Below are positions 17,946 to 32,786 of a stretch of 64,000 nucleotides of DNA, in pieces. The notes beneath the pieces were generated by a model. The model ran no database searches. It was not told where the DNA came from and worked only from the letters and a program-made list of their open reading frames with translations. The stretch comes from an uncultured delta proteobacterium (GTDB lineage: Bacteria > Myxococcota_A > Polyangia > Fen-1088): NCBI GenBank assembly GCA_963737265.1, contig CAVTRY010000014.1:32001-96000 (forward strand), written 5' to 3'. Within the stretch, counting starts at the first letter, position 1. Each line of letters begins with the position of its first letter. The position numbers were made by a program, and so were the translations under genes.

Positions 17946-19655
17946 CTATAGATTCTTGTACAGCGGGCCGCCGCCACCCTCGGGCGGCACCCAGTTGATG
18001 GCGCCGTAGGGATCCTTGATGTCGCAGGTCTTGCAGTGCACGCAGTTGGAAAAGTCGATGCGCAGCTTGTGAAACTTGCCGCTGGCCTCGTCGCGTTCAA
18101 CCACGTAGACATTGGCCGGGCAGAATTTTTCGCACGGGTTGCCATATTCTTCCGCGCAGCGAACGCAGTGGGTGGTGTCGACGTGCAAGTGGCAGGGCTG
18201 CTTTTCCTCGTGGCGCGTGCCCGAATGATAGACGTCGGTCAGCTTGTCGAAGGCCGAGCCCTGGTTGTCGTACTTGAACGTATCCTTGGGTGCGCCCTGC
18301 GGGTAGGCCTCGGACAGCTTCTTCGTGTCCGTGTGGTCTTCCTCGAGGACCATCTTGTCGAGCGGGTAGCGGCCGCCCGTAATCGTCATCAGCGCCGCGT
18401 GTACAGTCCCGCCGTAAAGGCCGGCCTTCATGAGCTGACGGAAATTGCGCGCGGGATACATATCCTTGACGATGTACGAATTGGCGACCGCACTTTCGTA
18501 CTTGGCTAGCTGGGCGGGTGAAAAGTCGTCCTGGGCCAGCGCCTCGAACAGCGTTTCCGCGGCCAGCATCCCCGACTTGATGGCGTAGTGAACGCCTTTG
18601 AGCTTGGGCATGGCCACCATGCCGGCGCTGTCGCCACAGATGAGCGCACCGTCCATCGCGACTTTGGGAATGGAGTAGTAGCCGCCCTCGGGGATGGTCT
18701 TGGCGCCGTAGGAAACCAGCTTGCCGCCCGCGAGAATCTTGCGCACGAACGGGTGCCGCTTGAATTCGCAAAACTGCCGGTGCGGGTCGATGAGCGGATC
18801 GTGGTAGTCGAGCCCGGTGATTACGCCGATGCTGATCTGATTGCCCGACATGGCGTAGATGAAGCTGCCGCCAAAGGTGTGCCTGTCCATCGGGTAGCCC
18901 ATGGTGTGGATGATGTGGCCGGCGGGCAGGGGCGCCTGGTCGAATTCCCAGACTTCCTTCACGCCGGTGGCGTACGCCTGCGGATTTCGCCCCTCATCAA
19001 GGCCAAGCTTCTTCACCAACTGCTTGGTGCACGAACCGCGTGTGCCCTCGCAAAATACGGTGGCCTTCGCCAGCAGATTGGGACCGGCCTCAAAGATGCC
19101 CTTGGGCGTGCCGTCGGCGTTCACGCCCTTGTCGCCGAGCTGGACGCCGATCACGCGCTCGCCTCGGTACAGAACCTCACTCGCCGCGAAGGTGGTGAGC
19201 GCGTCGACGCCCGCTGCCGACAACTGCTCGCCCATCCACTTCACCAGCTTGCCCAGCGAAACGATAAGGTTGCCGTGGTTGTTCATCTGCGGCGGAACCA
19301 TGGGGAATTTGAACGACCGCTTGCGGGTGAGGAAATACACGCCCTCGCTCTTGACCTCGCCCTCGATGGGCGCCCCCTTTTCTTGGTAGTCGGGTATCAG
19401 CTCGGCCAGAGCCTTCGGCTCCATGACCGCACCCGACAGGGTGTGATCGCCAAGGTTCGCCGCTTTTTCGATGACCGCCACCACCATGTCCACGCCGAGC
19501 GTTTCCTCGTTGATGAGCCTGCCCGGCCGTTCGCCTTTGGCCACGGCGGCGTTGTGCTTGGCGATGAGGTTGGTCAGGTGCAGGGCGCCGGAAAGGCCCG
19601 CCGGCCCGCCGCCGACGAAGACCACGCCCGCTTTCATGGTGTCTCGCTCAGTCAT
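17946..19655 (-). CDS. Electron transfer flavoprotein-ubiquinone oxidoreductase (ETF-QO)
   Basis: FAD motif VGGGPAGL, YGAKTIPEGG, KLKGVHYAIKSG, ferredoxin end FCPANVY...NCVHCKTCDIKDP...PEGGGGP. Confidence 0.95.
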   Translation of the reverse strand: MTERDTMKAGVVFVGGGPAGLSGALHLTNLIAKHNAAVAKGERPGRLINEETLGVDMVVAVIEKAANLGDHTLSGAVMEPKALAELIPDYQEKGAPIEGEVKSEGVYFLTRKRSFKFPMVPPQMNNHGNLIVSLGKLVKWMGEQLSAAGVDALTTFAASEVLYRGERVIGVQLGDKGVNADGTPKGIFEAGPNLLAKATVFCEGTRGSCTKQLVKKLGLDEGRNPQAYATGVKEVWEFDQAPLPAGHIIHTMGYPMDRHTFGGSFIYAMSGNQISIGVITGLDYHDPLIDPHRQFCEFKRHPFVRKILAGGKLVSYGAKTIPEGGYYSIPKVAMDGALICGDSAGMVAMPKLKGVHYAIKSGMLAAETLFEALAQDDFSPAQLAKYESAVANSYIVKDMYPARNFRQLMKAGLYGGTVHAALMTITGGRYPLDKMVLEEDHTDTKKLSEAYPQGAPKDTFKYDNQGSAFDKLTDVYHSGTRHEEKQPCHLHVDTTHCVRCAEEYGNPCEKFCPANVYVVERDEASGKFHKLRIDFSNCVHCKTCDIKDPYGAINWVPPEGGGGPLYKNL

Positions 19656-19779
19656 GGCCTTCTACTTATCCTTGTTCGCGAAACTCCGCACGCCGCATCT
19701 CGCCGCGGATCCGCAGATCGGGAGCTCTCAAGATCGGGCCAATCTGAGTCGATTCTCGATCGTTGTGCGCAGATCTGGG

Positions 19780-21496
19780 ATGTTGACGAGAAGCTCGAGA
19801 ATCGGTCGCTGCAGGAAATGGGCAGGTCGTTTCTTCCTGGGGTTCTTCGTCATCGCGGCGTACCCGGAAGCGTCGTGGGCGTTGACCCAGGCGACGCTGA
19901 CGGAAAGTAACGCGCAAGGGAGTCCTTGGACCTTTGTCGTGGGAGCCCCGCCTCCTGCGACCATCCCCACGCTAAGCCAATGGGGGCTTGTCATTTTTGC
20001 GCTGCTCATTGCCGCGCTTGCGTTCAAGTACCTGCGGTGGCATCGCGGCCCGGCCGGGGCCGCGCTGATCTTCGTCGTGCTCTGGTGGGCCCGAATGGTG
20101 TTGGGCTCCGCGGGATGGCCGCTCGGGACGGCGAGCCATGAACCAAGCTTGTCGATCACGGGCACGACGAGCACGCTGACCATGCGCTCTCCGCTCAACC
20201 CCACCGCGGGCCAGGGCTCCGTGTTCATCGCGGCCCAGCTCGCTCCGGTCAGCGGCGACAATGTCACGGGGATGGTGCTGCACTATCAGAAGAATGGAGA
20301 CGGCAGCATTTGGCGAACAGCGGCCGGCTCCCGCTGGGGAGCGCCCGCGTGCAGTAACTGCTGGGCGGCCTCGCTGCCGCTCGGGGACTACGCTGCGAAT
20401 TACCAGCTTCGCTATTACCTGTCGGTCGCCACGAGCGCGGGCGGGCCGGCCTACCTTTGCTCGTCGAGCGGCCAGTGTACGGGGGTGACGTGCGGCGCGC
20501 ACAGCACCTGCGTCGACGGCGGCTGCCGCTGCAACAGCAACTGGACTGGGCCGAGCTGCTCTGCGTGCGCATCGGGCTATTACGGCAACGCGTGCACTCT
20601 CTGCCCGAGCTGCGGACCACACGGAAGCTGTCTCGACGGCCTTGCTGGCAACGGCACCTGCACCTGCGAGGCGAATTACTCCGGAGCCAACTGCGGCACC
20701 GTGATCGACCCGTGCGTCGGTGTGACGTGCGGCGCGAACCGCACCTGCGTCGGCGGCAGATGTGTGTGCGACAGCAACTGGACGGGAGGGGATCTGCGCC
20801 GTATGCGCGTCGGGATACTACGGGGTTGCATGTTCTCCATGCCCGAGCTGTGGAGGTCACGGGGCATGTGTGGACGGCCTTGCCGGCGACGGCACCTGCA
20901 GCTGCGATAGCGATTGGGCAGGAGGGAGCTGCGCCGCGTGCGCGTCGGACTACTATGGTGCTGCATGTGCTCCGTGCCCGAACTGCGGACCACACGGGAC
21001 CTGTGTGGACGGCCTTTCAGGCGATGGTACCTGCAGCTGCGAGGCAAACTACTCTGGTGCCGACTGCAGCGCCGTGATTGACCCGTGCGTCGGTGTGACT
21101 TGCGGAACCCACAGCACCTGCGCCGGCGGCAGCTGTGTGTGCAATGGCAACTGGACGGGAGGGAGCTGCGCCACGTGCGCGTCGGGATACTACGGGGCTG
21201 CATGTGCTCCGTGTCCGAGCTGTGGAGCTCACGGGACCTGTGTGGACGGCCTTGCCGGCGACGGCACCTGCAGCTGCGATGAGAGCTACACCGGTTCGGA
21301 CTGCACCTCGTGTTTGTACATGCACCTGCCCAACGGAGACTGCGTGGACAACTGCACAATCGACCCCGGCTACCCCTACGTGTTTGGCACGGAGTGCGTG
21401 GACGTGTGTCCGGTCGGGACGGTGTTGTCCATCGGCAACTTCTGCGTGTCTGACCAGGGCGATGACGAAATTCCGTCTGGACCTCCGAACCAATAA
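19780..21496 (+). CDS. IPTL-CTERM-motif protein (internal motif) with EGF/laminin-like repeats (frameshift near 20790)
   Basis: Signal-like N-terminus; IPTLSQWGLVIFALLIAALAFKYLRWHR at about aa 62; second hydrophobic segment; beta domain; tandem CPSCGxHGxCxDGLxGxGTCxC repeats spanning ORFs 19471..20910 and 20762..21496. Confidence 0.85.
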
Positions 21497-21615
21497 GGTC
21501 GAACGGCCTCACCATGAACTCTGCCAGACCCTCAGCCAGCGCTGGTCCCTTTCCTGACCTACTACCTCCGAGATTCTTCGCGTGGCGCGACGATTTTTCC
21601 AGTTGTCGCGTCGTG

Positions 21616-21906
21616 AGGCTTCAGGCTCCAGGCTCCAGGCTTCAGGCTGAAGAACTGTCCAAAAATTGGACAGTTCTTCAGCAGCCGAGCCAAGGGCTCG
21701 GCCGCAGGTGGGGTGAAGTCCGCGAATTTACTTCGCGGACGAGGGGAGGGCAGCGGCCCTCCCTTCAAAAATCTTCAAGACGGGTCCATTTATGGACACG
21801 TCTTGAGGTGCCGGCTCATTCGTCGAGGTCCAGGAAACTGATCGCTGCTCTCGACGGAGCAGCTGTAGCCTGTAGCCTGGAGTCTGTAGTCTGTAGCCTG
21901 GAGCCT
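21616..21906. repeat. Nested repeat cluster: inverted heptamer arrays around palindromic elements
   Basis: (AGGCTYC)n at 21616-21648, reverse-sense (CTGKAGY)n at 21863-21906, with repeat C and a mini repeat A inside. Confidence 0.75.
21651..21759. repeat. Intergenic repeat family C, copy 1
   Basis: AGAACTGTCCAA-AAA-TTGGACAGTTCT palindrome plus CAGCAGCCGAGCCAAGGGC...GAAGTCCGCGAATTTACTTCGCG; also found at 55435. Confidence 0.85.
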
Positions 21907-21956
21907 TTGGTTGTGCGCGAACCCCACGCCGGGTCGCTCGATAGCGGCGGGACGAG

Positions 21957-22517
21957 ATGAGCCGTCTCGGGATCCAGCCGGCCTTGGGCAAGGGCGATGG
22001 GCCCTGCGCGCCCGAGCACGCGCGCCCGAAGTATCGCTCTTGGCTCAAATTCGTCGTCCTCTTCGCGGTCATCTTCGTCGCTGGCACCAAGGCGCACGAG
22101 GTAACGCGAGCGCGCCTGGCGCCATTCCTCGTCGGCACGCTCACCGTGAAACCGAGTGCGGCGTTCATCAACCTCGTCACGCCTTCCGAAGGGACCAAAG
22201 CCGTCGGGAACCTGCTCAAGGGGCAGGTGACCATCCGGGTAGGCCAGGGATGCGACGGCATCGATGGCTTGCTGCTACTCCTCGCCGCCGTGCTTGCCTT
22301 TCCCACGACCGCGAGGGCGAAATTCACAGCGCTCGCTGCCGGCGTGCCCCTCGTCTACACCTGCAACCTGGTGCGCATCGTTGCGCTTTACCAGGTCCAG
22401 CGCCACGCGCCGCTCTACTTCGATCTAATGCACGCCTACGTTGGCCAGACGGTCATCATCATCGTCGGTTGTGGCTTCTTCTTGTTCTGGATGCGCAGTC
22501 AGGCGCGGACGGAATGA
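21957..22517 (+). CDS. Exosortase (XrtH/XrtM-like)
   Basis: Multi-TM protein with catalytic Cys (GCDG), Arg (NLVRIVALY) and His (LMHAYVGQ). Confidence 0.9.
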   Translation: MSRLGIQPALGKGDGPCAPEHARPKYRSWLKFVVLFAVIFVAGTKAHEVTRARLAPFLVGTLTVKPSAAFINLVTPSEGTKAVGNLLKGQVTIRVGQGCDGIDGLLLLLAAVLAFPTTARAKFTALAAGVPLVYTCNLVRIVALYQVQRHAPLYFDLMHAYVGQTVIIIVGCGFFLFWMRSQARTE

Positions 22518-22518
22518 A

Positions 22519-23106
22519 ATGATGGCCGGACGCAAGCATGTCAACGCGGTCTTGCGAGGCGTGGCGGCCTACGCGGTCCTTTGCCTCGGCTCCTACTTCT
22601 TTGGCGCGTCCCTTGTTTGCGCCTTGGCGCCAGCGTTCAAGCTCGAGATCGAGTCCTTGGGCCCCGAGCACAAGGTCACCGAGTTTCGCGTCGAACGAGC
22701 CATCGTAAACCTGAGGATCGAGAATGAAGGTGGTCGGCAGGCCGAGGTTCAGGTCAGGTTCCACCACTTCGGGTTCACCTACCCGATTCTGGTCCTGTCG
22801 CTGCTTGCAGCATGGCCGTTCCCGTCGCTGACCAGGCGGTTGTTGGCGCTCGGCATCGGGGCTCTCCTCGCCACTGCGGTCGTGATGATCGATCTGCCGG
22901 CCGAAGTGTTGCTCAGCTTGGCCGAACGTGCGCCGAAGAAACCATTCTTCGTGTCCTTCTTCTTCGAGAACGGCGGCAGGCAATTCTTGGCGTTGATGAT
23001 CTTCCTATTGTCCCTTGCCGCCAGTGGTTTTGCCTCCGCGTGGTGGCGGGCCGTTCGCGGGGCGAGGCCTGGCCGCACGGTTCGACGGCGTCCCTCTGTC
23101 CGGTGA
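22519..23106 (+). CDS. Exosortase-associated membrane protein
   Basis: About four hydrophobic segments (YPILVLSLLAAWP...). Starts 1 nt after the exosortase stop. Confidence 0.7.
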   Translation: MMAGRKHVNAVLRGVAAYAVLCLGSYFFGASLVCALAPAFKLEIESLGPEHKVTEFRVERAIVNLRIENEGGRQAEVQVRFHHFGFTYPILVLSLLAAWPFPSLTRRLLALGIGALLATAVVMIDLPAEVLLSLAERAPKKPFFVSFFFENGGRQFLALMIFLLSLAASGFASAWWRAVRGARPGRTVRRRPSVR

Positions 23107-23173
23107 TCGATCTCCGCGCCGGTGTCGTGAGCAAGAGTCGCGCTATGGGTGCAGCGCCGGTACACTAGGCGCC

Positions 23174-24593
23174 ATGCCGGTTCGGCTGTCGCGGGGAAGG
23201 CTGCTTGCCAAATTGCTGGTGGCCATGCTGGTGCCCGCGATTTTGGCCTTGGTTCTGTTCGGCGCGGCGGCTTACGAAGTGGCGCGGCGGGTGCTCGAAG
23301 ACGAGCTCGGGCGGCGATTGGCCACGGCGGCGACCTCGGTGGCGATGTTGGTTCTGCCCGAACAGCTGTCGGCGATCGGCGCTGGCGACGAACAGTCGAA
23401 CACCTACGCCAACCTTCGCCGGCGTGTTCGAGCAAGCACGCGATCGTCTGGCGGTGCGGCGCGTGTTGTTGGTGGCGCGCGATCTCACCGTGCGCGGAGA
23501 TAGCGAGAAGCTGGTTGAGCTGGGCGCGCGCGCGCATGAGCTGGGCGCCGACGCGCCCGAGATCGAGAAGGCGGCCCTCGGGCAGGCCACGGCATCGCCG
23601 CTATTTCTCGGCCGCGATGGGCTGCCCTACAAACGCGGCTACGCTCGTATCGGCAATCCGGCGACCGGTTTCGCCGTGGTCGAGGCCAGCGCCCAGTACC
23701 TAGAGGCGCTGGCGGCCTTTCGGCGTTGGCTCGTCTTGGGCGGTGTCGTCAGCGTCGCCATCATCGTGGTGCTGGCGGCGTGGCTCTCCCGGCGCATGAC
23801 CGGGCCGCTCGAACGTCTGGCTGGCGCGGCCGAGCGCATCGGGCGGGGCGATCTGACGGGCGCGGTCGCGGTCGAGACGCGCGATGAGATTGGCTACCTG
23901 GCCCTGCGCCTCGATCAAATGCGCGAGGCCCTGCACGCGCGCGACGAGCGCATGCAGATGATGCTGGCGGGAATCGCGCACGAAGTTCGCAATCCTCTGG
24001 GTGGACTTGAGCTCTATGCCGGGCTCTTGCGCGAAGGGCTGACCGAGCAGCCGGAACGCTTGGCCGAGATCGCGCGCGTCGACCGCGAGATTGGCTATCT
24101 CAAGAATGTCGTCACGGACTTTCTCGATTTTGCTCGACGACCTCCTCCGGTGATGGAAGAAGTCCCGGCAGCGCAACTGCTGCAGGAGACCGCGGACGTG
24201 TGCCGGTCGCCTGGCCGTTCCACGACGCTTCGGGTGGAATGTGAGCCGAGCCTCGTGGCTTTTGCCGACCGAGCTCAGCTTCGCCGGGCGCTCATCAATC
24301 TCGCGAAGAACGCCATCGCGGCGGCCGGTCCCTCGGGGCAAGTGGTGCTCGCCGCTCGCGTCGACCCCGACACGCGCCAGCGCATTGAATGGGAAGTCCG
24401 CGACAGTGGCAGCGGCGTGCCGGACGAAATTCACGACAAGATCTTCGCGCCCTTCTTCACCACGCGCGAGCAGGGCACCGGTCTCGGCCTAGCCTTCGTG
24501 CAGGAGATCGCGCGCGATCATGGCGGCGAGGTCAGCGTGGATCGCGGCCCCGAGGGCGGGGCGCGCTTTCGCTTCACCAGCACACGCGCTTAG
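23174..24593 (+). CDS. HAMP-domain sensor histidine kinase (frameshift near 23427)
   Basis: The first TM is in ORF 23015..23503. HAMP, AHEVRNPL, NLAKNA, DSGSG, PFFTT and GTGLGL are in ORF 23205..24593. Confidence 0.9.
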
Positions 24594-30724: not shown

Positions 30725-32786
30725 ATGTCCTTCGTGGTGGATCTCGATGCTGCTCGTGCGCGCCTGGGAGGCAAGGCGTGCGCGCTCGGCGAGCTTGCCG
30801 CCGCTGGTTTTCCCACGCCCACCGGTTTTGTCATCGCCGATGCGCTTTTTCGCAGCCTGTGCCCCTCGCTGCCGAGCATCGATCGCATCGACCAAGCGAC
30901 GTTGGCAACGCTCGATACCCTGCTAGATCGGTTTACCCACGAACCCTGGCCCGCCGGATTTCGCGACGAGCTGCGGTCTCGTTTGGGCTCGATCGGAGCG
31001 GCAAGCTATGCGGTACGGTCGTCGTTCGCGGGCGAGGATGTCGCGGGCCAACTTGCCGCCGGTGTGTACGAATCGCGTATTGACGTCCCGGCCGATCTCG
31101 TCGAGGGAGCGATCCGCCAAGTGTTGTGCTCGGCTTTTTCTCCCGGCGCGGTGGCCTATGCTCTGACTCGCGGGAAACAGCCGGCGACCGCTCCGGTGGC
31201 GGTTCTGGTGCACGCCTTCGTACGCGGCGAAGCCGAGGGCAGCGCGGCCTTCGCGCCCGAGCGAATGACCGAGCCGTTCGTCACCGTCAGGCGCGGCCGG
31301 CTTCCCGCCGAAGCCCGCTCCGAGTTGGGCAATGGCGTTATTTCGTTCGCCCGCTCGCGCGGACCGGTAGAGATCGAGTGGGTCTCTTGTGCAGGTCGAG
31401 TGCTCTATCTTCAGGCGCGGCCGTTCGAGCCAACGGTTGCGCCCGCGGCCTGGCTCGGGTGGAACGATTTGGGCGACGAGGCGAGCACGCGCGATGCGTG
31501 GCGCTGGGACGCGGCTCACAATCCTCTGCCGCTTTCGCCCGCGCAGGCCGGGCTCGTGGCGTTGGTGGACAGCGCCTGCTCTGTGGGTATGCGGCAGCGT
31601 GTGCTTGGCGGGTACTTGTTTTACCGGCACGACGATCGTCCTTCGCCGCCCGCCATCGACTGCAAGGAAGCCTCGTCCTATTTTGCTTGCCTGCGCGACC
31701 GCGTGGAGGTGCGTCTCGTCGCGCTCGGACCGCAGCCCACGCTCGAACGCAGCCCTGGCACTTTTTCTCTCGGCTTACGAACCCATCTTCGGCGTGCTCC
31801 AGCCCGCCCTGCGCGAGGCGCACAAGAACCTTTCTCAGTTCTTGGAAACCCACGCTCCCGAGGGACTCGCCCTTCTGCCCCTCCTGCGAGCTGGCGTGGA
31901 TTCCATGGCCAGCGAGCGGCGCGCGCGCGTGGCCAAAATTTCGTCCGCGAATGGCGAGGCCTGTCGCGCATACGCGCTCGCCGACTACCTCGCGCTGTTT
32001 GGCGACGAGGCGCCGGTTTGGGATGTCTGCGCGTCGACTTACGCCGAAGCTCCTGACGCCCTTGCTGTGCGCGAATCGTCCGGCAAGGCGGCTGCGAGCC
32101 TTCTACCGCTCGATTGGCGGCACGCCGCAGCCGAGGTGGAGGCGATGCTGGCCAATGCCTCGCAGGAAGGGTGGCGTCACGCGCTGTCGCTGGCACGCGA
32201 GGCGGTCTGCCTGGGCGAGGCCGATGACTGGCTCTATGCCCGCGTGCAGGCCGCGGTTCGTCGCGCGCTTCTGGCGCTGGGCGAGGGGTTGCACCAAGCC
32301 GCCGCCATGGCCAAGCCTGCGGATGTGTTCTACCTGCCGTTCGCGTTGGTGCAAGAAATCGCCGGCGGGAAGGCTATTCCGGTCACCCTGAACGCGGCGG
32401 CGGGCGCGGGCAGGGCCGCGTGGGAGTGGGCTTGTGCACATCCGCCTCCGTCGCCGGTGGATGGTCGAGGGCGAGCGATGGTGCGTGGCTCGGGAACCGG
32501 AGGGCGCGCCATCGGCCGCGTGGTCTGGCATCGATCCGGTCTGCGCACCCCGGTGGCGCTGGATGCAGTGCTGGTGGCAAAGACGCTCTTGCCCACCGAG
32601 CTTCCGCTCATCAACGCCGTCGCCATCGTGACCGAGACCGGCGGACCGCTCGATCATGTTGCCGCTCAGGCGCGCGAACGTGGCATACCCGCGGTGGTTG
32701 GCGCTGACGGCGCAAGCTCGGCGTTATGCGAGGGCGACGTGGTGCTGGTCGACGCCGATCGTGGCGTCGTGGTCCGCCTACTCTGA
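30725..32786 (+). CDS. PEP-utilizing enzyme, RPH/PigC-like domain order (frameshift near 31747)
   Basis: LGGKACAL, YAVRSSFAGED, AGVYES, EIEW, LQARP. The C-terminal phospho-His domain reads TETGGPLDHVAAQARERGIPAVVG. Confidence 0.85.

Follow-up and report, generated by a model that had tools for sequence, protein, structure and literature searches.

A putative dedicated exosortase unit in a Myxococcota_A genome whose cargo carries an IPTL-type sorting signal near its N-terminus

Introduction

The exosortase H/IPTL-CTERM system (TIGR04177, TIGR04174 and PF18203) couples a small Cys/Arg/His exosortase (~160–190 amino acids, aa) to cargo proteins whose C-terminal sorting signal consists of an IPTLxxWG motif, a helix and a basic cluster, with one enzyme serving many cargoes. 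The same enzyme type and the same signal elements are found at the locus described here, a three-gene unit in an uncultured delta proteobacterium (GTDB lineage Myxococcota_A; Polyangia; Fen-1088) in which the signal lies close to the N-terminus of the cargo. The locus is located on a stretch of 64,000 nucleotides (nt), hereafter the window, that corresponds to positions 32,001 to 96,000 of contig CAVTRY010000014.1 (assembly GCA_963737265.1).

We know of no acceptor, product or cleavage site for exosortase-H-like enzymes. In the archaeal archaeosortase A/PGF-CTERM system, which belongs to the same superfamily and serves many cargoes, the C-terminal signal is cut at its motif and the new C-terminus is lipidated. 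Database curators have also built a subfamily_domain hidden Markov model of 175 positions, NF033207 ('midcut-by-XrtH'), for proteins in which an IPTL-type signal follows the signal peptide after a short stretch and precedes a second hydrophobic helix, as in the window cargo; this midcut layout exists so far as a database model only. A Methylomirabilis S-layer protein annotated with a C-terminal IPTL-CTERM signal (PMC8671808) is the one experimental context that our literature search found, and the search returned no other paper on midcut, XrtH, XrtM or IPTL-CTERM biology. Dedicated sorting systems, with one target per genome encoded beside its enzyme and a sporadic distribution, are described in a preprint by Haft (bioRxiv 10.1101/2023.06.07.544157).

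Results

Organization of the locus

Three co-oriented genes on the + strand occupy positions 19780–23106 of the window and encode a cargo protein, an exosortase and a partner membrane protein. The original prediction, made from the letters of the sequence, had listed them as substrate, exosortase and partner, and every listed element is present. Their coordinates are:

19780..20790, + strand: cargo gene, first frame (residues 1–337; ATG at 19780; ends in WTGG at a frame break)
20792..21496, + strand: cargo gene, second frame (234 aa plus stop at 21494–21496)
21957..22517, + strand: exosortase (186 aa)
22519..23106, + strand: partner membrane protein (195 aa; its start lies 2 nt past the stop codon of the exosortase gene)

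The gene-caller product of the cargo gene (P0020) starts at the same Met as the frame opened by the ATG at 19780. Reading the cargo through both frames gives a protein of about 571 aa (337 + 234) and thus a passenger of about 455 aa after the second hydrophobic helix.

The cargo carries an IPTL-CTERM signal near its N-terminus

The cargo consists, in order, of a putative signal peptide, a 27-residue peptide, an IPTL-CTERM signal, a second helix, a beta-sandwich and epidermal growth factor (EGF) repeats. Its N-terminal modules are as follows:

19780..19881, + strand: signal-peptide-like N-terminus (residues 1–34; basic n-region, hydrophobic core and S-W-A end, by inspection)
19882..19962, + strand: conserved N-terminal peptide (27 residues, 35–61; conserved in the 12-sequence alignment A6)
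19963..20046, + strand: internal IPTL-CTERM signal (residues 62–89; IPTLSQWG, hydrophobic helix, KYLRWHR)
20053..20118, + strand: second hydrophobic helix (about residues 92–113; AlphaFold helix 91–108)
20155..20475, + strand: beta-sandwich domain, immunoglobulin (Ig)- or carbohydrate-binding module (CBM)-like (about residues 126–232)

TIGR04174 (IPTL_CTERM) matched residues 62–82 with 29.3 bits (cut-off 20.5), and the genome profile search put this match at window positions 19963–20025; on the relative P0019, PF18203 scored 28.4 (cut-off 20.8). The signal residues P63, T64, L65, W68, L85 and R86 are invariant in A6, as are H120 and P122, which follow a small-residue site (T-A-S) behind the second helix. 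In the short peptide, E42, A45, Q46 and F52 are nearly invariant across the 12 diverse sequences of A6, and ahead of it W33 and A34 are invariant in four close relatives. With its last residue at position 89 in a chain of about 571, the signal is not C-terminal; the arrangement anticipated in the original prediction (a signal-like N-terminus, some 27 residues, IPTLSQWG, a second hydrophobic segment and a long passenger) was recovered, and relatives likewise have the signal inside the chain.

No stop codon follows KYLRWHR, the point at which the original prediction had considered that two separate genes might meet, and the frame stays open through the second hydrophobic segment. The same read-through was seen in all four close relatives covering this junction (L034, L027, P0021 and P0023), and the remoter members of A6 show it as well; the two-gene alternative was rejected on these grounds. 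The first 240 aa of the cargo are 89 % identical to the intact relative in L034. The beta-sandwich domain matched no Pfam or NCBIfam family. The second frame encodes teneurin-/laminin-type EGF repeats and a Cys-rich tail and lacks a C-terminal sorting signal; PF23106 (EGF_Teneurin) was found on P0019.

The EGF part of the gene is variable. Across window positions 20476–21300, repeat number and type differ among close relatives (L027, L034, L037, P0017 and P0018), the L037 passenger carrying a different, calcium-binding-type array, and the cargoes of close relatives and the window measure 369, 431, 447, 490 and about 571 aa. This variation points to recombinational gain and loss, or to assembly collapse.

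The exosortase belongs to a clade next to XrtM and XrtH

Searching 5.8 billion clusters returned 16 relatives of the exosortase (E value <=1e-5). Residues C99, R140 and H159 are invariant in 16/16 aligned relatives, and the enzyme scored above the cut-offs of both superfamily signatures (TIGR04178, exo/archaeosortase signature: 55.2, cut-off 23; PF09721: 27.4, cut-off 25.7), in agreement with the Cys/Arg/His exosortase of the original prediction. Its link to exosortase H did not hold at the curated cut-off, since XrtH (TIGR04177) scored 66 against 86; XrtM (TIGR04300) was the top-scoring exosortase model, with 95.1, and missed its own cut-off of 125. Six clade relatives were scanned and also missed the cut-offs throughout (XrtM 86.4–105.5; XrtH 61.5–80.2). 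As the window enzyme and its clade relatives fall below both cut-offs, we place them in an uncatalogued clade next to XrtM and XrtH.

The partner gene adjoins the exosortase gene on its 3′ side in 8/8 aligned loci. Its product is a conserved four-helix protein with invariant W99, D125-x-P127 and N151-G-G-x-Q-F156, and it matched no Pfam or NCBIfam family. A SEC-C/SWIM-type Cys motif (TIGR04102, which at 29.8 bits stayed below its cut-off) forms the C-terminus of the Syntrophales partners (L030–L032) and is missing from the Myxococcota partners.

One enzyme is paired with one cargo, and the pairing changes with enzyme identity

The 6.55-Mb genome returned five IPTL_CTERM matches at an E value <=1, of which one, the window cargo, lies above cut-off. 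It also holds two exosortase-family genes. The second lies on another contig (L007, G000:C11:1280837-1284088) and scored below both cut-offs (XrtM 56.7 bits, XrtH 54.4 bits); it is neighboured by a 3′ membrane-protein (partner-like) gene and by a convergent gene for an Ig-domain protein (Big_9), whose C-terminus has a proline-rich motif, a helix and an Arg-rich tail. This exosortase and the Big_9 protein look like a conventional dedicated pair. With a single IPTL signal above cut-off and a second exosortase that has a conventional cargo of its own, the dedicated character proposed in the original prediction stands.

Genome and metagenome scans gave 10 usable loci; an Actinomycetales locus (L033), a spurious 18-residue match, was left out of all counts. 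The loci are listed with the identity of their exosortase to the window enzyme and what lies directly upstream of it:

L034, 88 %: intact cargo of 490–495 aa with N-terminal IPTL signal; same flanking genes
L035, 87 %: tail of a same-family cargo, without C-terminal signal; N-terminus off the contig
L027, 74 %: intact cargo of 447 aa with N-terminal IPTL signal
L036, 69 %: only 78 bp of upstream DNA
L037, 68 %: tail of a same-family cargo, without C-terminal signal; N-terminus off the contig
L028, 55 %: C-type-lectin protein with ordinary C-terminal IPTLTEWG
L029, 51 %: C-type-lectin-like protein with ordinary C-terminal VPTLSEWG
L030–L032 (Syntrophales), 41–44 %: exosortase and partner only, no adjacent cargo seen

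A cargo gene is positioned directly upstream of the exosortase in 7/11 clade loci (the window, L027–L029, L034, L035 and L037), and the type of cargo follows exosortase identity: enzymes at 68–88 % adjoin midcut cargo, and those at 51–55 % adjoin lectins with C-terminal IPTL signals. The location of the L028 and L029 enzymes behind cargoes ending in IPTLTEWG or VPTLSEWG signals suggests that the clade serves IPTL signals. Within one clade the same motif thus occurs at either protein end, and this provides the strongest indirect case for genuine cleavage at the internal motif. NF033207 gave no match above cut-off in the genomes of 41 relatives (8 weak matches).

Wider family and a relative in conventional order

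A profile built on cargo residues 1–130 returned 60 matches (E value <=0.001) among 1.84 billion representatives, some of them conventional C-terminal signals. Beyond the close family, six representatives of 168–1045 aa (P0025, P0026, P0028, P0031, P0032 and P0038) carry the signal and the second helix within their first 136 residues, and four examined proteins (P0024, P0029, P0040 and P0043) carry both in mid-chain, behind a first passenger of 170–300 residues (choice-of-anchor U domain). Some relatives possess two or three IPTL stretches per chain, P0047 having internal and C-terminal copies, and 5/20 proteins scanned passed the NF033207 cut-off (P0026, P0047, P0035, P0058 and P0071). The relatives in A6 share the post-signal peptide, the invariant residues behind the second helix and the same beta domain, and passengers among the relatives vary, with teneurin-type EGF, calcium-binding-type EGF, Sushi and Lcl_C domains. 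The original prediction had spoken of a polyprotein-style processing switch; 'polyprotein' fits the relatives with a sizeable first passenger, and 'switch' is unsupported. In several distant relatives, Met residues are present in the presumably cytoplasmic loop just before the second helix, which suggests that this helix may have originated as the signal peptide of a downstream gene that was once separate.

A protein of 570 aa in locus L045 (genome G055) contains two copies of the cargo beta domain (pairwise E values 1e-6 and 5e-4), followed by a peptide-like stretch and a C-terminal IPTL signal that match window residues 18–90 (E value 3e-7). No hairpin intervenes between the two domain copies, where a peptide-like stretch is joined directly to the His-x-Pro with which the second copy begins. 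The window cargo is, in effect, permuted relative to the L045 modules, which stand in conventional order. A word-based search with the beta domain alone found only six already known proteins and so yielded no further hairpin-less relative.

A structure model suggests a split beta-sandwich

AlphaFold gave a mean predicted local distance difference test (pLDDT) score of 62.5 with 12 sequences; a model made with 4 sequences was too poor for use (48.7). Helices 65–87 and 91–108 form a hairpin in the 12-sequence model, the strands between residues 134 and 228 form a beta-sandwich (pLDDT 70–86), and the N-terminal peptide has strands at 36–39 and 50–53 flanking a helix at 42–47, with a pLDDT of 82 at residues 41–50. 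VIA-align matched the model to beta-sandwich domains at Z 6–7.7. Among the 50 structural matches listed, 13 run from residues 28–40 to 228–231 (87–109 aligned residues), several of these being contiguous domains of about 100 residues; 20 cover about 127–232 only and 17 the hairpin only. All Z values lie below 8, which permits the claim of a common beta-sandwich fold but not assignment to a family. The Atlas model of P0019 matched Ig-like domains at template modelling scores of 0.66–0.71.

Taken with the hairpin-less arrangement of the G055 protein, the model and the spanning matches suggest that the short peptide supplies the first strand or strands of the sandwich and that the hairpin is an insertion. 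A bolder and rather doubtful extension is that a signal-bearing membrane hairpin sits inside an extracellular beta-sandwich, the chains staying joined by strand complementation once the exosortase has moved the C-terminus of the peptide to an anchor and signal peptidase has released the passenger; the peptide is kept in 12 diverse sequences and is modelled as strands that need a partner, which supports this extension, as do the 13 spanning matches and the L045 protein. If it were true, a sorting enzyme of the C-terminal type would tether a protein through its N-terminus, and the halves of the mid-chain polyprotein relatives would be held together likewise. It would explain why a C-terminal sorting signal is found near an N-terminus, and would represent a new surface-protein tether.

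The frame break in the cargo gene

The cargo gene is interrupted by a short run of G:

20788..20791, + strand: GGGG run with a one-base frameshift (the +1 frame is open from 20792 to the stop)

The break amounts to one extra G relative to a neighbouring 135-bp repeat copy, which has GGG. A contig from public run X1 (325 nt, depth 4.5) aligns to position 20790 and then continues ATCTGCGCC; these nine end letters equal window positions 20792–20800 and so give GGG, in frame. The downstream frame (234 codons without a stop) is 85 % identical to P0019 residues 260–490, up to the last residue. Contigs from the public runs cover 22/30 (X1), 6 (X2) and 4 (X3) bins of the stretch, and none of the X1–X3 contigs bridges the whole cargo gene. 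As the most likely explanation of the break we favour an error or a minor variant; a very recent pseudogene is less likely. Programmed frameshifting or phase variation was rejected, as the relatives are unshifted, the public contig lacks the extra G and a run of 3–4 G is short.

A repeat lies between cargo and exosortase

The intergenic region between cargo and exosortase (21497–21956) contains an element that lies outside the system:

21647..21807, strand not assigned: interspersed repeat of ~161 bp with palindromic ends

This repeat occurs at about 40 places of at least 99 nt in the same genome, at 88–100 % identity (76 matches listed), and the depth of public contigs is 20–36 at the repeat compared with 2–4 in its flanks. 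L034 and L035 have a gap of 17 bp between cargo and exosortase, L027 and L037 one of about 100 bp and the window one of 460 bp. A 7-nt unit (AGGCTYC or its complement) is arrayed at 21616–21648 and 21863–21906. The two arrays form 33-nt imperfect inverted repeats (85 % complementary, with 218 nt between them) on either side of the interspersed repeat; its other copies lack them.

Proposed mechanism and alternatives

We read the locus as a dedicated three-gene exosortase unit whose sole cargo is a midcut protein, the frame break being most likely a one-base error or rare variant, and we give this reading a probability of roughly 70 %. The cargo N-terminus would be exported by Sec and residues 1–34 removed by signal peptidase. 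The IPTL helix would stop transfer, leaving KYLRWHR in the cytoplasm, and the second helix would act as an internal signal that restarts export of the beta-sandwich and EGF repeats, which would then lie outside the membrane. On the outer face, the exosortase would cut at IPTLSQWG, with Cys99 as nucleophile together with Arg140 and His159, and pass the new C-terminus of the 27-residue peptide to some acceptor or to water; by analogy, archaeosortase A with its lipidated products might be a model for the fate of this peptide. The passenger would stay on the helical hairpin, or signal peptidase might free it at the small-residue site before the invariant His-Glu-Pro (His120).

Several observations weigh against this reading. 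The window enzyme reaches neither the XrtM nor the XrtH cut-off, and the cargo, for which NF033207 is the next-best family match after IPTL_CTERM, scored 33.9 with that model (cut-off 45). The unit is sporadic, with no exosortase of more than 35 % identity in the genomes of 40 relatives searched, and the N-terminal profile matched 2/401 genomes of the phylum, its own included. The in-frame reading of the cargo is taken from nine letters at one contig end at a depth of 4.5, and this contig possibly comes from the same sample as the window. Signal peptide, membrane topology and the sites for signal peptidase were assigned by visual inspection, the helices also being given by AlphaFold. Finally, a repeat separates cargo from enzyme in this genome and, together with a true frameshift, would mean decay. 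In that case the extra G would end the in-frame part of the cargo at residue 337 (376 aa including the out-of-frame tail) and the repeat would uncouple the exosortase from the cargo promoter. The assembly itself reads GGGG, the wide gap holds a multi-copy element where the two closest relatives have 17 bp, and no orthologous cassette was found in 12 same-genus genomes searched. Set against this, one public contig has GGG, the 234 downstream codons are free of stops and closely match an intact relative, and the exosortase and partner frames are intact; we consider decay unlikely.

A quite improbable alternative is that the motif is never cut, the IPTL helix and the second helix forming a permanent hairpin anchor or a docking site on the exosortase–partner complex. 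Our search of the literature found no report of cleavage, and a structural anchor could also explain the strong residue conservation, which includes the loop and H120/P122. However, scores above both curated cut-offs tie the motif, helix and basic cluster to the cleaved C-terminal signal, sister enzymes adjoin ordinary C-terminal IPTL cargo, and some relatives, such as P0047, have the signal both internally and at the C-terminus of the same chain; these observations speak against an uncut motif. The region contains repeats and the assembly at least one likely base error, so the N-terminal signal might be an artefact of two wrongly joined genes or of an incorrect start codon; the same continuous frame nevertheless recurs in L034, L027, P0021 and P0023, which are independent records, as well as in distantly related proteins of other samples, and we regard such an artefact as extremely improbable.

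Under the preferred reading of a dedicated midcut unit, the cassette may be a compact test case with one enzyme, one partner and one cargo. The first fragment, of 27 residues, is short enough for mass spectrometry, including any attached group, and the sister enzymes at 51–55 % identity, with an ordinary C-terminal version of the same motif, offer a natural control.

Genomic context

The locus is flanked by a gene for electron transfer flavoprotein (ETF)-ubiquinone oxidoreductase (17946–19655, minus strand) and by a histidine kinase gene (from 23205). In L034, an aldo/keto-reductase-like gene (1371–2363) lies between the ETF-ubiquinone oxidoreductase and cargo genes; the window has no such gene. 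G+C content (0.60–0.69) does not distinguish the locus from its surroundings. Rfam gave no match (E value <=0.1) in 19000–23500, a promoter scan gave no site, and four terminator-like sites were observed where 3.2 were expected.

Comparison with known systems

Relative to the exosortase H/IPTL-CTERM system, the window unit differs as follows: its signal occupies residues 62–89 of about 571 instead of the C-terminus, its enzyme scored below the exosortase H cut-off, and enzyme and cargo stand one to one, whereas an exosortase H serves many cargoes. XrtM is the best exosortase model for the window enzyme and all eight clade members scanned (86–105 bits), and one source names clade relatives XrtM; however, its cut-off of 125 was reached by none of the clade members scanned. 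The window unit agrees with the dedicated sorting systems of the Haft preprint (bioRxiv 10.1101/2023.06.07.544157) in having one target, in adjacency, in recurrence and in its sporadic taxonomic spread, and differs in that the systems described there have a C-terminal signal and another enzyme class.

The midcut-by-XrtH family, named in the original prediction, does exist (NF033207), and the window cargo has its layout but remains below its cut-off. So do its close relatives P0019 (40.9) and P0021 (32.7), whereas the more distant P0026, which has the same peptide and beta domain, passes it with 49.4. The alignment to the model covers positions 11–93 only, so the part of the window cargo after the hairpin differs, and the enzyme adjoining the cargo falls short of the XrtH cut-off.

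The layout is not a new kind of system, as curators already model it as NF033207. By sequence comparison, the window unit is a divergent, below-cut-off variant of this catalogued system, served by an uncatalogued exosortase clade. New here are the split in pairing between enzymes at 68–88 % and at 51–55 % identity, the wider set of proteins with the peptide and domain, the relative in conventional order and the split-domain model.

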